64,000 nt of DNA from Trypanosoma brucei (lineage: Eukaryota). Numbering within the stretch: position 1 is the stretch's first letter; each line of letters opens with the position of its first letter. Position numbers and translations under genes: made by a program. The stretch lies in assembly GCA_000002445.1 (NCBI GenBank), contig AL929603.2:320001-384000 (forward strand), written 5' to 3'. The notes under the pieces were generated by a model. That model ran no database searches. It had not been told where the DNA came from and was given only the letters and a program-made list of their open reading frames with translations. This document shows, in pieces, positions 3,197-10,288 of the stretch.

Positions 3197-4486
3197 ATGT
3201 TCGTGCGGTCTTTCTGTTTCCTGCGTAAATATGGCAGCAAGTCAAAGACACCGGACCTCAAGACAAGTTTCACCAAAACCACTAACTTCCGAAAGGCGGA
3301 GAAAATTAGTATCACCACAACAGATGGGGAAATAGTAAAGGGCCGCGGTAAGATACGGCGGCGCACCCACAGCGCACTAAAAGAAGCCATTGGGGCCATG
3401 GAGCACCCCGCGATTTGGCTCTGGTACCCGTGGCGTATGAATCCTGAACCCCCGACACCGCACATGCCCCAACGCCGTGCCCTGAAAAACGTTCATGGCG
3501 CGGTATTTAACGATCTAACACCCGTACAGAAGAAACGGCAGGAGCAGATGTTGTATGGCGTTAACATACCGGAGACGCGACAAATGAAGTTTGAGGAGCA
3601 ACATCCGCTGCTTGCTGGAGCGCTGCGGAAGCTTGAGGGTCAGCCGAAGGGTTTCCCGTTTTGGTACAGAAAGTATCCGACACGTCGTCACGCCTACGAG
3701 TACCGTTTTAGCATTCCTGTGGAGATGTTAGACGGGTACAACGATGACGTAAAAAAGGCTCTCTCAAAAGGTATGATGTCGATTCAGGAAAAACAGTTCG
3801 CTCAAGAAGCCATGTACATGGAGCGTTACGCCGAACACGACTTCGATACCACAAGCCCGGCGGTGCTAGCGGTTAAACGCGCGCTTAAGTGCCGTGTGCT
3901 ACGAAACCACCTTCTGACCAATCCGCACAATAACATTATCAAGACAGTGTTGGCGAACACGGAGCGGAAACTTAACCACGCCCTGCGCAGACTGCGTAAG
4001 GTAGATTTTAAGAAGTACTGGGAAATCATTCGTGACCACGATGTGCAGGATATACTTCAGCCTCCCAACCTCGTCACATACCGTCAGGGATCGTACTGGA
4101 AATATGACTGGAATGCAGGCTTGGCAATATCAACAAATCTTGCGGATGTGATGGATCCTCGTGGTTTAAATGGTTGCGTTGAAACGGGCCGATCCCGCTC
4201 GGAGGTCGCGCGTGATCTCGGCCTCTCATATACTCGGCCTCTGCATGAGAATGAGAAGAAACAGTTGTCTCACCAAGCCGTCTACTATGAGCGGCTGGCT
4301 AAATTTAAAATGGAGCAACCCGAAGCGGCACGGGCGATGGAGCGTGAGCGGTTCGTGCGGAAATTCTCCGGCATGTTTGTGAAGATGGACATTCGTTCGG
4401 GAGCACCAGACTTCCCAAGCACATATCGTAGGTTACTTGGAACAAAGGTGGTGCGATGGGCGTCTAAGCGACACGGCCCCAATTAG
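3197..4486 (+). CDS. Conserved hypothetical protein, basic, possibly organellar
   Basis: Clean 429-aa ORF starting at ATG 3197 with coding-like composition. No family recognised from the sequence. Confidence 0.45.
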   Translation: MFVRSFCFLRKYGSKSKTPDLKTSFTKTTNFRKAEKISITTTDGEIVKGRGKIRRRTHSALKEAIGAMEHPAIWLWYPWRMNPEPPTPHMPQRRALKNVHGAVFNDLTPVQKKRQEQMLYGVNIPETRQMKFEEQHPLLAGALRKLEGQPKGFPFWYRKYPTRRHAYEYRFSIPVEMLDGYNDDVKKALSKGMMSIQEKQFAQEAMYMERYAEHDFDTTSPAVLAVKRALKCRVLRNHLLTNPHNNIIKTVLANTERKLNHALRRLRKVDFKKYWEIIRDHDVQDILQPPNLVTYRQGSYWKYDWNAGLAISTNLADVMDPRGLNGCVETGRSRSEVARDLGLSYTRPLHENEKKQLSHQAVYYERLAKFKMEQPEAARAMERERFVRKFSGMFVKMDIRSGAPDFPSTYRRLLGTKVVRWASKRHGPN

Positions 4487-6711: not shown

Positions 6712-7395
6712 ATGCCGGCCACTGAGATGCAACAGATGGAAATGGATATGGTGCAAGGCATGTATGATTCCTTCACTCTTTGCAGTGAAGACCCTCCAAC
6801 ATATTCGGTCGTTCTCTCAGCTACGGAAGATGAGCCGCCGGAGTTACGCGTCACTGTTGTATACGAGTCTGATGACTATCCCGAAACAATGGCACCGACT
6901 GTACGGCTGGAACATTTCGCCAAAAATCGTCGTATGCCCACTGCTCCACTTTTAAAGGAAATAATGGAACTCTGTGAAGAGCAGATAGGTATGCATAGTA
7001 TTATCTCTGTACTTCAAAAAGCCCAAGAGTATTTGACAGAGTTTGCAGAGGGAGATGAAAAGGCAGAGTTGCAAAAAAGGGGCGAGGCGCTTGGAAACGC
7101 AGCCGGTACCGCGGTTGTTCAGGACCCGACCATTCGAATTGGTAACGCCGTTACACGCGAGCTCTTCGAGGAATGGAGTCAAAAACGCAGAGCCGAGAGA
7201 TTGCGGGAGCGTGAAGCTAATGAAAAGAAAGTTAGTGGAAAGCTGACAGGTAGACAGTTGTGGGATGCGGCGCTTAGGAACACGGAGTGGGACCTGTTTT
7301 GTGGCTCGGATACCGAACAAGATGTTGATTTGGACGCTTTTGAACCGGTAGATGAAGACGACTTGGACGAGCAGGAGTTTGATTTGGATGAATGA
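6712..7395 (+). CDS. RWD-domain protein with a C-terminal DFRP/acidic tail, i.e. an RWDD1/Gir2-like DRG-family regulatory protein
   Basis: N-terminal EMDMVQGMYDSF...DPPTYSVVL...LRVTVVYESDDYPETMAPTVRLE matches the RWD signature (Y/F...PP.Y...L.V.YP...P). The C-terminus carries a DFRP-like block ending DEDDLDEQEFDLDE. Confidence 0.6.
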   Translation: MPATEMQQMEMDMVQGMYDSFTLCSEDPPTYSVVLSATEDEPPELRVTVVYESDDYPETMAPTVRLEHFAKNRRMPTAPLLKEIMELCEEQIGMHSIISVLQKAQEYLTEFAEGDEKAELQKRGEALGNAAGTAVVQDPTIRIGNAVTRELFEEWSQKRRAERLREREANEKKVSGKLTGRQLWDAALRNTEWDLFCGSDTEQDVDLDAFEPVDEDDLDEQEFDLDE

Positions 7396-7662: not shown

Positions 7663-9105
7663 ATGCGAGGCATTACATTGGCGCTGGCGCCACCATCTCT
7701 TTTATTTGTCCCGAAAATTCAGCGGCGGTGCTTCAACGTCATACAACGTGGTAACGATCGCGAGGTGGATTCGCTTTTTGCACTGCTGGGCTTTGCTGGT
7801 GACAATGAGGCGCATCGCATACGCCGGACCCGTGCGGAACTGCGGCAGGGGTTTATGCGTGAAGCAATGAAGCTGAAAGACCCTCAAAATGACAAGAGCG
7901 ACGCAGCCAAACTGGAAAAACTTAGAGAGGCGTATCAGTTGCTTTCCAATGATCGCTTTCGTGTGCAATACGCTGCGCATCACTACGCCTCTCCAGATGC
8001 CTCACTTCATCTTCTTGTGGACGGCGGCCAGGTTGCCGCTAACTTTAACCCTGAACATCAGTCGTTTAACTTTGTTGATCACGCCATCTCAAGAGCCGCT
8101 ATGAGCCCCTCTTCCCGGTCATCGTCGGATAAACAGCGATCCTTCAGTGACTTTACTGGTCAGTATAATTCAGTGATAGGTAACACCGGTTGCTCAACCG
8201 ACGCTCGTCCATATAACGCTCCTGAAGCCCGAGCCGCCATAAATGGTGCGGGTATTAATTTTATGTTGCGCATCTCATTCGATGAAAGTGTTCTCGGCTG
8301 TACCAAGACGGCTGTCTATGAAAAAAATGTTTCATGCCAGCGGTGTAGTGGTAATGGGCGAATGGTGCTCAAACGCCCTCGGAAATGCCCACAGTGTCGT
8401 GGTCGCGGCTCCACGCACCTTCCAAGCGCCACGTATCATATTGAGCGCTCATGCACGTATTGTAATGGCGACGGAGTGACACCTCCTCCGAAGTGTAGCG
8501 GGTGCCGAGGAGCCGGTGTTGTGCCCGGGCACACGGTTCAGGTTCCAGTTGATATCCGCCCCGGAACCACAAATATGACAGCGTGTCGCCTTCGTGGTAT
8601 GGGACATGATGGTGTGCGTGGCGGTGTGGCAGGTGATCTTATTGTGACTGTGTTAGTTCAGGAACACCGCGTCTTTCACCGTGATGGTCTAGACCTACAC
8701 ATGGTGCTGCCCATTACTTTATCTACGGCATTATTGGGTGGTATGGTGTCTGTGCCTCTGCTTCACGGGCCTTTTTGCACACGGGTGCCACCATGTGTAA
8801 GAAATGGGCAACAAATAAGGCTTAGTGGAAGGGGTGTTACACTCGACGGTAGCGGAGTCCTCACCAATGCTGAAGAGGGGATTGATACGGACAGTTCAGC
8901 TTCTAAACAGGAGCAACAGCAACGTGGTGATCTCTACATACATTTACTTGTCGTTATTCCTAAGGGTGAGGAATTAACTGGGGCGCAGAGGAGCGCTCTC
9001 GAACAATTTGTTGTTGAACAGGATGGCAATGGTGCTGAAGGTGTGGATGATATCACACCAACTGCCCTGAAGAGGCGGTTTCGGCACTGGCTGCCGGGTA
9101 CGTAA
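7663..9105 (+). CDS. DnaJ-type (type I-like) co-chaperone homologue with four CxxCxGxG zinc-finger repeats and a degenerate J domain (HPD replaced by DPQ)
   Basis: Four repeats are present: CQRCSGNG, CPQCRGRG, CTYCNGDG and CSGCRGAG. The J-like helix pattern is ...EAMKLKDPQND...LREAYQLLSND. The track ORF begins at a TTG at 7615; the first ATG is 7663. Confidence 0.6.
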   Translation: MRGITLALAPPSLLFVPKIQRRCFNVIQRGNDREVDSLFALLGFAGDNEAHRIRRTRAELRQGFMREAMKLKDPQNDKSDAAKLEKLREAYQLLSNDRFRVQYAAHHYASPDASLHLLVDGGQVAANFNPEHQSFNFVDHAISRAAMSPSSRSSSDKQRSFSDFTGQYNSVIGNTGCSTDARPYNAPEARAAINGAGINFMLRISFDESVLGCTKTAVYEKNVSCQRCSGNGRMVLKRPRKCPQCRGRGSTHLPSATYHIERSCTYCNGDGVTPPPKCSGCRGAGVVPGHTVQVPVDIRPGTTNMTACRLRGMGHDGVRGGVAGDLIVTVLVQEHRVFHRDGLDLHMVLPITLSTALLGGMVSVPLLHGPFCTRVPPCVRNGQQIRLSGRGVTLDGSGVLTNAEEGIDTDSSASKQEQQQRGDLYIHLLVVIPKGEELTGAQRSALEQFVVEQDGNGAEGVDDITPTALKRRFRHWLPGT

Positions 9106-10080
9106 GGGATGGGATTGTGGTATGGAGCAGCTGCCAATACGATTTCATATGAGATGTGCCATGGCCCTACCGTGAGCTCATAGTTGAATGCGGGTGCAGC
9201 GCCCTCATTTTATTACGCGTTCACACATATGAAAGTTCAATCGAATAACGGTGACAGAACACACACATATATGTATATATATATGTGTGTGTGTGTGTTT
9301 GTGTTTGTGTCTGTTTTTTTTCTTTTTGTATAGGGTCAACATAAAATGTTTTCCCCTTTCCTTTCTCTGTGAAGTTTCTGTTCACCCCCCTCCTCTAATC
9401 CTCATCGTCTTTGTGCTTGCACTCGAAGCAGTTGCAGCTGCACGTACTTTTAGTCCTTCTTTCCCTTATTAATCTTCCCCGCTGTCTTTACCGCATTGGA
9501 TGATTGGTAGGTAATGAAAACAGAGGTAAGCTTGCAAGCGAGAAAAATACAAGATTAAAAACCTGGTATTTGGTACCACGATTGAAATTGTAGGGAGAAT
9601 AAAACAAAAAAAATAAATACATGATGTACCGGTTCTACAACGAAGACATATCATTTTGGATATGCGGAACTCAGATCTCTGTGTTGGCACAATTGTCTTT
9701 TGCTATGAGAGTGAAGGGCGCGTTGAGTGGGAAGCCATGCCGAATTTAGTGCGAGGCCATCCTAATTAAGGTACCCGAGAGCGCGGTGAGTTGTGTTACT
9801 TTCCGTATTGGAGTACAGTTGTGTATACTGTTTGATTCTATTCGCTTTGGTATCTAGCACAGCCGGTGGCTAGGACGAAAGTTGCTCGAGGAAAAGTGCT
9901 TGCTTTTACGCTGTCTTTCGTATTTGCTGCCCTTTTCTCTGGCTTTGAACTGTCAGGATTTTTTTAAAAAAAGAATGCTTCCCCCCCTTTTTTTTTTGCT
10001 ACAGAGCCAAAAAAGAAAAAAACCACAAAAAACCGCTAAAGGGGGCCAGCATCACAGCTTCGTTGTGCTGAAGGTTGTTG

Positions 10081-10165
10081 CGTGTTCTTTCTTTTGTCTG
10101 TATGTTTTCTTTTTCCATTCTTGCTCATAGTTCTTGCATCCCCTCTTTTTTTTTTTTTGGTTGTT
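10081..10165 (+). promoter_or_regulatory. Polypyrimidine tract plus AG, a probable trans-splice acceptor region for the CTP synthase mRNA
   Basis: A C/T-rich run ending ...cccctctttttttttttttggttgttgttgcg, followed by AG dinucleotides, about 120-200 nt upstream of ATG 10289. This is the kinetoplastid processing architecture. Confidence 0.4.
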
Positions 10166-10288
10166 GTTGCGTTGGCATCCGTTTGTTATCCTCAAAATAC
10201 TGACGCAAACACGCTGACGGCCAATAACAGACACGCCGAAACATCACTCGGTTGAGTTAAAACGGTAGACGAGGAGGGTGGGGGACGT

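Follow-up and report, generated by a model that had tools for sequence, protein, structure and literature searches.

The DnaJ-like gene and its product

The open reading frame at positions 7663-9105 of a 64,000-nucleotide stretch of the Trypanosoma brucei genome (assembly GCA_000002445.1, contig AL929603.2, forward-strand positions 320,001 to 384,000; hereafter the window) encodes a DnaJ-like protein in which the J fold is retained and the Hsp70-activating surface is lost, the His-Pro-Asp (HPD) triplet of canonical J domains being replaced by Asp-Pro-Gln. The product matches with 100% identity a protein of T. brucei TREU927 and T. equiperdum (XP_001218825.1, UniProt Q4GZ96) that is annotated as ‘chaperone protein DNAJ, putative’ and encoded on a 1.06-Mb chromosome. 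The gene is most likely Tb927.1.1230, because the CTP synthase gene downstream of it is Tb927.1.1240 in a published table. It is annotated in public databases, and a published study of it was not found in the searchable literature: neither Q4GZ96, Tb927.1.1230, nor ‘Tb927.1.12*’ together with DNAJ is mentioned in searchable paper text, and the gene has no entry in the text of the Leishmania chaperone review.

Orthologues occur in all trypanosomatids sampled (Trypanosoma, Leishmania, Leptomonas, Angomonas, Novymonas, Lotmaria, and Porcisia) and among kinetoplastid-like sequences; conservation is given below for 24 of them. All 24 begin with an identical Met-Arg. In T. brucei, the ATG is preceded by four in-frame stop codons within 267 nucleotides, which excludes an upstream extension with a canonical J domain. 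A long polypyrimidine tract followed by AG also lies 5′ of the ATG, the expected context of a trypanosomatid trans-splice acceptor. Pfam detects no canonical HPD J domain elsewhere in the protein. With a hidden or upstream J domain ruled out by the in-frame stops and the agreeing orthologue starts, the first-pass annotation of this DNA, which had described a DnaJ-type protein with DPQ in place of HPD, stands on this point.

A J fold with a corrupted HPD loop

Pfam leaves the J domain uncalled. The DnaJ family (PF00226) scores 14.3 bits on the 480-residue protein (E 0.045), below the gathering cut-off of 27.8, and none of the named kinetoplastid orthologues has a precomputed PF00226 match. Profile comparison recovers the homology: hhalign of the 24 kinetoplastid N-termini against 28 canonical J domains gives a probability of 96% (E 4.7e-9) over 61 columns. 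In a full-length AlphaFold2 model based on a 71-sequence alignment, the predicted local distance difference test (pLDDT) score is 90-97 over residues 40-100. The predicted helices are I (38-41), II (57-69), III (78-95), and IV (97-106). Compared with canonical J domains, the helix I-II loop carries a 7-residue insertion, inside which an extra short helix is predicted (49-53), and one additional residue (K72) precedes the D-P.

A second AlphaFold2 model was built from kinetoplastid N-terminal sequences only, with no borrowing from canonical J domains. Nearly all of its Foldseek matches in the PDB are J domains, superposing at 2.2-2.8 angstroms, for instance Tid1 (2.5 angstroms over 73 columns) and, from the DnaK complex 5nro_B, the J domain of DnaJ (2.2 angstroms over 67 columns). 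The E-values of these matches are weak (0.02-0.1), as expected for a helical domain of 70 residues. The hydrophobic core of the J fold (L38, L42, G43, L60, L71, A90, L94, and Y103) is invariant in the orthologues. Alignments and models together identify the N-terminal domain as a true J-domain homologue that keeps the four-helix J fold. A recognisable J fold with a corrupted HPD places it within the type IV definition. It falls outside the functional J-domain proteins on three defining counts, namely the HPD, the Pfam threshold, and a basic helix II. The PDB contains no solved structure of this protein, the best sequence matches being heterologous DnaJs; the T. brucei flagellar chain 9e5c_3l and mitoribosome-assembly chain 6yxx_BK are different proteins.

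The first-pass annotation had read the sequence KLKDPQND as the helix II-III loop, and D-P-Q indeed falls on H-P-D in three independent alignments (phmmer against PDB DnaJ chains, MAFFT with 47 bacterial DnaJs, and the hhalign comparison). D73 and P74 are invariant in all 24 orthologues, while the third position is occupied by V, Q, E, A, L, I, or K. HPD is found in 28 of 28 members of the canonical comparison set, against D and P in 24 of 24 members of the family, and the replacement is therefore not due to chance. Thus, the loss that had been proposed for the T. brucei protein is conserved across syntenic kinetoplastid orthologues, and what does not hold for them is the DPQ triplet itself, as its last residue varies.

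The Hsp70-facing surface

In canonical J-proteins, helix II docks on subdomain IIa of Hsp70's nucleotide-binding domain and the Asp of HPD captures R167 of DnaK; a D35N substitution is inactive (PMC7289447). Asp35 acts by pulling R167 out of interdomain salt bridges. In the DnaJ-like family, the basic face of helix II is eroded along with the triplet. The position equivalent to K26 is hydrophobic in 24/24 orthologues and that equivalent to K23 is Gln in 22/24; an Arg equivalent to R27 remains in 17/24 and a Lys equivalent to K31 in 14/24. The net charge of helix II is +0.9 (standard deviation 0.9) in the orthologues, compared with +3.3 (standard deviation 1.1) in the 28 canonical J domains. 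These features suggest that stimulation of the Hsp70 ATPase has been lost. Two precedents exist in T. brucei: changing the His of HPD to Gln abolishes the function of TbPam27 (PMC7064343), and TbPam18 functions equally well with HSD or HPD (PMC11349236).

The J-like domain is not decaying. Its fraction consensus among the orthologues (0.67) is similar to that of the C-terminal domains (CTDs), with the zinc finger at 0.77 and the linker motif at 0.83, a pattern that shows purifying selection on the domain.

A class A body

The remainder of the protein resembles a class A Hsp40. Four exact CxxCxGxG repeats (CQRCSGNG, residues 225-232; CPQCRGRG, 242-249; CTYCNGDG, 264-271; CSGCRGAG, 278-285) make up the zinc finger, and all eight of their cysteines are invariant in the orthologues. 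The Pfam family DnaJ_CXXCXGXG (PF00684) is matched at 34.7 bits, above its cut-off of 32.7, and DnaJ_C (PF01556) at E 2.9e-31. The AlphaFold2 pLDDT exceeds 90 over the zinc finger and CTDs (residues 190-390). Foldseek with the full-length model retrieves DnaJ (6jzb, 1.5e-25), DNAJA2 (7zhs, 1.6e-22), and Ydj1 (1nlt, 2.6e-19) from the PDB. The zinc finger and C-terminal domains, which had looked intact on first inspection, are thus borne out as such by Pfam, by model confidence, and by structural similarity. Sub-cut-off Pfam matches to Anti-TRAP (22.4 bits), BSD2_CRD (17.1 bits), and GRXCR1-2_C lie underneath the DnaJ zinc-finger match and are not separate domains. A further helix is predicted at residues 440-455, with L438 and Q442 invariant in the orthologues. 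Having both the zinc finger and CTD I/II, the protein is a class A (type I) Hsp40 by predicted architecture.

Family-specific motifs

Three motifs set the family apart. Conservation within the protein peaks in the linker motif (residues 107-141), on which the first-pass annotation is silent; its value of 0.83 is a mean fraction consensus, and it follows the consensus S-x-D-A-x-L-H-V-L-x-D-G-G-x-V-A-A-N-F-N-P-E-H-x-x-F-x-F-V-D-H. It stands where canonical proteins have a Gly/Phe-rich (G/F) region. By direct count, residues 107-190 hold about 5 Gly and about 5 Phe in 84 residues (about 12% Gly plus Phe) and are not Gly/Phe-rich. Only ‘FNFVDH’ within the linker aligns with the canonical FxFxD(I/L)F of the G/F region in the MAFFT alignment with 47 bacterial DnaJs. 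In the N-terminal profile search described below, the linker motif is confined to the DnaJ-like family. Docking of the linker onto the J-like domain was sought in the full-length and N-terminal AlphaFold2 models; the region has a pLDDT below 50 and none was confident.

The N-terminal motif, in which all 24 orthologues share Q28, G30, and D32, also occurs in distant orthologues. In the C-terminal motif, K470 and W476 are invariant in 24/24; in the wider alignment, 21 of the 22 full-length sequences retain both, and P0128, the one exception, shows a 1-residue offset. The motifs may together provide a replacement interaction surface. All features of the protein are listed in Table 1.

Table 1. 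Positions of the DnaJ-like gene and of the features of its 480-residue product (window coordinates).
Feature	Position	Strand	Basis or remark
Complete open reading frame, 480 amino acids plus stop	7663..9105	+	First ATG 7663; TAA 9103-9105
Putative mitochondrial matrix presequence, residues 1-24, MRGITLALAPPSLLFVPKIQRRCF	7663..7734	+	Leader composition in 24 orthologues
Family-specific N-terminal motif F-x-V-I-Q-R-G-x-D, residues 24-32, directly before helix I	7732..7758	+	
J-like domain, residues 37-106	7771..7980	+	hhalign, AlphaFold2, Foldseek
D73-P74-Q75 at the H-P-D loop position, helix II-III	7879..7887	+	Within KLKDPQND, residues 70-77
Family-specific linker motif, residues 107-141, HYASPDASLHLLVDGGQVAANFNPEHQSFNFVDHA	7981..8085	+	Replaces Gly/Phe-rich region
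Ser-rich variable linker, residues 142-190	8086..8232	+	Fraction consensus 0.48; pLDDT <50
C-terminal domain I with zinc-finger-like insertion, residues 191-333	8233..8661	+	Pfam DnaJ_C, pLDDT >90, Foldseek
Zinc-finger-like region, four CxxCxGxG repeats	8332..8523	+	Repeats at nucleotides 8335-8358, 8386-8409, 8452-8475, 8494-8517
C-terminal domain II, residues 334-431	8662..8955	+	Holds Trypanosoma-specific low-complexity insertion, residues 394-420 (nucleotides 8842-8922)
Predicted C-terminal helix, residues 440-455	8980..9027	+	AlphaFold2; position of class A dimerisation helix
Family-specific C-terminal motif L-K-x-x-[F/Y]-x-H-W-[L/F], residues 469-477	9067..9093	+	24-orthologue alignment

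Evolution of the HPD site

A HMMER search of 1.84 billion representative proteins, with a profile built from the N-terminal 124 residues, gave just 32 matches at E ≤0.001, with the family on top and about 12 deeper relatives included. These deep orthologues are termed kinetoplastid-like on gene order and polycistronic gene packing only. All of them carry the N-terminal and C-terminal family motifs, and all except P0137, in which it is deleted, carry the linker motif. Their HPD sites form a series. P0127 has HPD (Pfam DnaJ 27.3 bits, E 3.9e-6), P0133 has RPD, and P0132 has DPS, followed by SPS in P0128, SPK in P0137, HSL in P0129, SDA in P0131, and DDD with an insertion of about 25 residues in P0126. 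A bodonid-like group (P0027 and P0122-P0125) has DPx, which is DPE in P0124. By direct reading of the alignment, the HPD-bearing P0127 already has the de-charged helix II typical of the family.

Synteny identifies P0124, P0126, P0127, P0132, and P0133, the five checked, as positional orthologues. In their contigs, a gene for an RWD-domain protein lies directly upstream on the same strand, and CTP synthase lies downstream where the contig is long enough; the RWD proteins of the two contigs compared are 49% and 41% identical to the T. brucei RWD protein. The SPS, SPK, HSL, and SDA relatives are assigned by shared family motifs, synteny having covered the other five. In a rough neighbour-joining tree, the DPx sequences fall together with 82% bootstrap, and the remaining family members lie in an unresolved basal assemblage, apart from bacterial DnaJ and fungal Mdj1. 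On the strength of the site series, the synteny, and the tree, the ancestor was a canonical HPD J-protein whose triplet was lost within the lineage, after the family-specific motifs had arisen. The same sequences indicate that HPD is dispensable for the family taken as a whole and that the trypanosomatid plus bodonid-like branch fixed D-P.

In the bodonid-like group (P0027 and P0122-P0125), a further 11-25 residues (…GGxxY…) are inserted into the J-like domain at the helix I-II loop, and the zinc finger and CTDs also hold long insertions. The scaffold tolerates large loop expansions. A protein of a different kind, P0130, came from the same N-terminal profile search. It consists of 679 residues with six near-identical tandem repeats, each with a complete HPD J domain, an unusual architecture.

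Genomic surroundings

In the window, the gene directly upstream of the DnaJ-like gene encodes an RWD/DFRP_C-domain protein (6712-7395, forward strand). This same-strand RWD–DnaJ-like micro-synteny is found in every kinetoplastid-like metagenomic contig examined (L002, L003, L005, L007, and L008), with CTP synthase downstream in two of them; its deep conservation made it a helpful marker of orthology. Bodonid-like contigs have an extra gene of 233-340 codons between the DnaJ-like gene and CTP synthase (L007, 3301-4131; L008, 4218-5240; L005, 7641-8342). These extra genes are mutually unrelated, and tblastn found no remnant of them at 9106-10288 in the T. brucei window.

Farther upstream, a 429-residue open reading frame (3197-4486, forward strand; 1553-2842 in L001) has a weak Ribosomal_S15 Pfam match and likely encodes a mitoribosomal S15-like protein. 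Because trypanosome gene order is polycistronic, no functional link with the DnaJ-like gene is supposed. On the 3′ side of the DnaJ-like gene, microsatellite runs of (TA)n and (TG)n and, after them, a poly-T tract (9260-9330) probably belong to the 3′ untranslated region or the intergenic processing region.

Origin and predicted location

The leaders of the 24 orthologues vary in sequence but share a composition. They are basic, with 3-11 Lys plus Arg residues, contain 0-1 Asp plus Glu in 23/24, and end in a conserved R-R-x-[F/Y]. A basic, acid-poor leader with an R-2/R-3 processing-peptidase site is the textbook pattern of a matrix presequence. The composition of the leader thus suggests a location in the mitochondrial matrix.

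Outside the family, the nearest matches are DnaJs from bacteria, several being alphaproteobacterial, and the fungal ‘DnaJ homolog 1, mitochondrial’. The protein is not the T. brucei orthologue of Mdj1, and its family forms a clade of its own in the neighbour-joining tree. T. brucei has a canonical mitochondrial Hsp40 (mtHsp40), the Mdj1 orthologue Tb927.9.12730, and a single sequence type of mitochondrial Hsp70 (mtHsp70), which act in kinetoplast DNA (kDNA) maintenance (PMC4337576). Because this canonical mtHsp40 already exists, the DnaJ-like protein represents an extra paralogue. One of the PDB chains set aside above, 6yxx_BK, is a 228-residue component of a T. brucei mitoribosomal large-subunit assembly intermediate whose match to the J-like model is weak (E 1.1; 3.2 angstroms over 77 columns). 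It looks like another J-fold protein taken into non-Hsp70 work in the same organelle.

A putative pseudo-cochaperone

The preferred explanation, to which a probability of roughly 0.6 is assigned, is that the gene encodes a class A pseudo-cochaperone of the mitochondrion, derived from Mdj1, which binds clients but does not activate mtHsp70. On this view, the protein is a paralogue, found kinetoplastid-wide, of the class A Hsp40s of bacterial/mitochondrial type (DnaJ/Mdj1/Tid1 lineage) in which His33 of HPD was exchanged for an invariant Asp, Asp35 for a residue that varies freely (in T. brucei, Gln), and the basic face of helix II was largely neutralised. After import into the mitochondrial matrix via its basic N-terminal presequence, it would bind non-native or specific clients through CTD I, the two-zinc finger, and CTD II as a (probably dimeric) holdase or adaptor. 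ATP hydrolysis by mtHsp70 would not be stimulated in the canonical way. Instead, the motif at residues 107-141, FxVIQRGxD, and LKxxYxHW may constitute a new partner interface in place of the one for Hsp70. The holdase or adaptor role is suggested by analogy.

Several points weigh against this explanation. The strict invariance of D73 and P74 in trypanosomatids and bodonid-like sequences places the loop under selection, and a contact with Hsp70, or with some other partner, that was kept in altered form would fit it as well. The gene does not appear in the supplements of the papers on the mitochondrial importome, TrypTag, and Pam16/18, so the location has no proteomic or imaging support there, and the searchable literature holds no biochemical, localisation, or knock-down data for it. 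Holdase activity of the CTDs and zinc finger would be an extrapolation from other class A proteins. The linker motif lacks a confident predicted structure or docking, and to read it as an interface is guesswork.

More speculatively, the D-P loop, the linker motif, and the C-terminal LKxxYxHW might form a new kinetoplastid-specific module that docks the class A scaffold to a non-Hsp70 partner, an idea considered unlikely. If true, the partner could be, for example, the kDNA, RNA-editing, or mitoribosome assembly machinery, and the protein would be the second case, after TbPam16/18, of a trypanosome mitochondrial J-protein repurposed away from Hsp70. The orthologue series from HPD through RPD and DPS to DPx would then record this rewiring stepwise.

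Alternative explanations

Lost activation and a non-canonical Hsp70 contact had been offered side by side by the first-pass annotation. The evidence favours loss of canonical activation, because the position of the R167-engaging Asp varies freely, helix II is de-charged, and deep orthologues tolerate many triplets. Under the alternative, which is considered unlikely, the protein is a working Hsp70 co-chaperone whose D-P-x loop, together with R61, R66, K70, and K72, forms a non-canonical contact that stimulates or tunes mtHsp70. Co-evolution with the kinetoplastid mtHsp70 might underlie such a contact, or the conserved linker might assist it as the DIF motif of the G/F region does in DnaJ.

The purifying selection on the J fold and the invariance of D73 and P74, which extends beyond the 24 orthologues to four more bodonid-like sequences, are what such a contact would predict, but the critical Asp35 position is unconstrained and accepts seven residues. 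Similarly, the Arg and Lys that persist at the R27- and K31-equivalent positions in 17 and 14 of the 24 orthologues could serve it, yet the K26-equivalent is hydrophobic in all of them and the charge of helix II has dropped from +3.3 to +0.9. A positional orthologue with HPD and 27.3 bits in the Pfam DnaJ family does remain; outside the DPx clade, however, SPS, SPK, HSL, SDA, or an insertion of about 25 residues argue that no alternative contact is shared family-wide. Finally, the equal function of TbPam18 with HSD or HPD (PMC11349236) shows that the triplet is not always decisive in trypanosomes, whereas the J-binding surface of the single mtHsp70 is constrained by the need to serve dozens of canonical J-proteins with HPD (PMC11349236, PMC4337576).

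Somewhat less probable still is a role for the J-like domain in regulating another J-protein, as Pam16/Tim16 does for Pam18, or the formation of mixed dimers with mtHsp40 via the C-terminal helix. The protein would then modulate the delivery of clients to mtHsp70, for example in kDNA maintenance, a possibility that overlaps with the pseudo-cochaperone explanation. Pam16 forms a pair with Pam18, and the two T. brucei proteins are both J-like and repurposed for maxicircle replication; other members of the J family, however, were not recovered in TbPam16 pulldowns (PMC11349236). The predicted C-terminal helix occupies the class A dimerisation position and the canonical mtHsp40 paralogue acts on kDNA (PMC4337576), but the present analysis contains no evidence of heteromeric contact, the argument is one of pure analogy, and the family-specific motifs have no counterpart in Pam16.

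An annotation artefact, with a canonical J domain behind an upstream start, or a decaying and functionless N-terminus would account for the J domain that Pfam leaves uncalled at 14.3 bits, but is effectively refuted by the four stops in the 267 nucleotides upstream with their polypyrimidine/AG context, the Met-Arg start shared by 24/24 orthologues, an N-terminal 145 residues conserved equally to or above the CTDs, and the persistence of the family in syntenic position across deep kinetoplastid-like lineages.

Comparison with known systems

J-like proteins are already familiar as a kind, and are usually small modules with little beyond the J domain. The putative pseudo-cochaperone described here would be a complete class A Hsp40 without the Hsp70-activating surface, maintained by strong purifying selection across a eukaryotic order, and thus a natural experiment on what the client-binding body does without Hsp70. 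The orthologue series, including the HPD form, offers a tractable system for studying how a co-chaperone loses its Hsp70 partnership. The protein is also an uncharacterised, parasite-lineage-specific candidate mitochondrial chaperone that would stand beside the essential mtHsp70/mtHsp40 machinery of kDNA maintenance. Large J-protein catalogues filter out sequences without HPD (PMC10410713). Because of this requirement, and because Pfam leaves the J domain uncalled, the family has probably been missed by J-protein inventories.

The closest likeness is to DnaJ, Mdj1, and DNAJA3 (Tid1), with which the protein shares the order of a J-type four-helix domain, a linker, CTD I with four CxxCxGxG repeats, CTD II, and a predicted C-terminal helix. 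The likeness includes the presequence-like leader. DnaJ (6jzb), DNAJA2, and Ydj1 give the best matches in sequence and structure, and the fungal mitochondrial Mdj1 is the nearest named eukaryotic match outside the family. Unlike these proteins, the DnaJ-like protein has D-P-x for HPD, a de-charged helix II, and the 7-residue insertion between helices I and II. It also differs from them in the conserved motif that takes the place of the G/F region and in the added N- and C-terminal family motifs.

With Pam16/Tim16, TbPam18 (HSD), and TbPam16, the protein has in common a J fold, a corrupted HPD, and kinetoplastid-wide conservation of the corrupted motif (PMC11349236). A probable mitochondrial location and a presumed Hsp70-independent function extend the resemblance to TbPam16/18 (PMC11349236). 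Pam16 and Pam18, however, are small, membrane-anchored, nearly J-only proteins without client-binding domains, whereas here a full class A body is attached. In addition, TbPam18 retains the His and Asp of the triplet, while the DnaJ-like protein retains only the Pro.

DNAJB13 (radial spoke protein 16) offers a precedent for a full Hsp40 client-binding architecture without a classical HPD (PMC10410713). The full-length model of the DnaJ-like protein also matches axonemal class B chains, namely 8j07_U/V, 7jtk_Y, and T. brucei 9e5c_3l. In contrast to the class A and apparently mitochondrially targeted DnaJ-like protein, DNAJB13 is a class B protein without a zinc finger, is cytosolic/axonemal, and plays a structural part in radial spokes. 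The CxxCxGxG module itself is shared with BSD2, Anti-TRAP, and ORANGE-type proteins, which function with no J domain. They are made up solely of the Cys-rich domain, whereas the DnaJ-like protein adds CTD I/II and a J-like domain to it.

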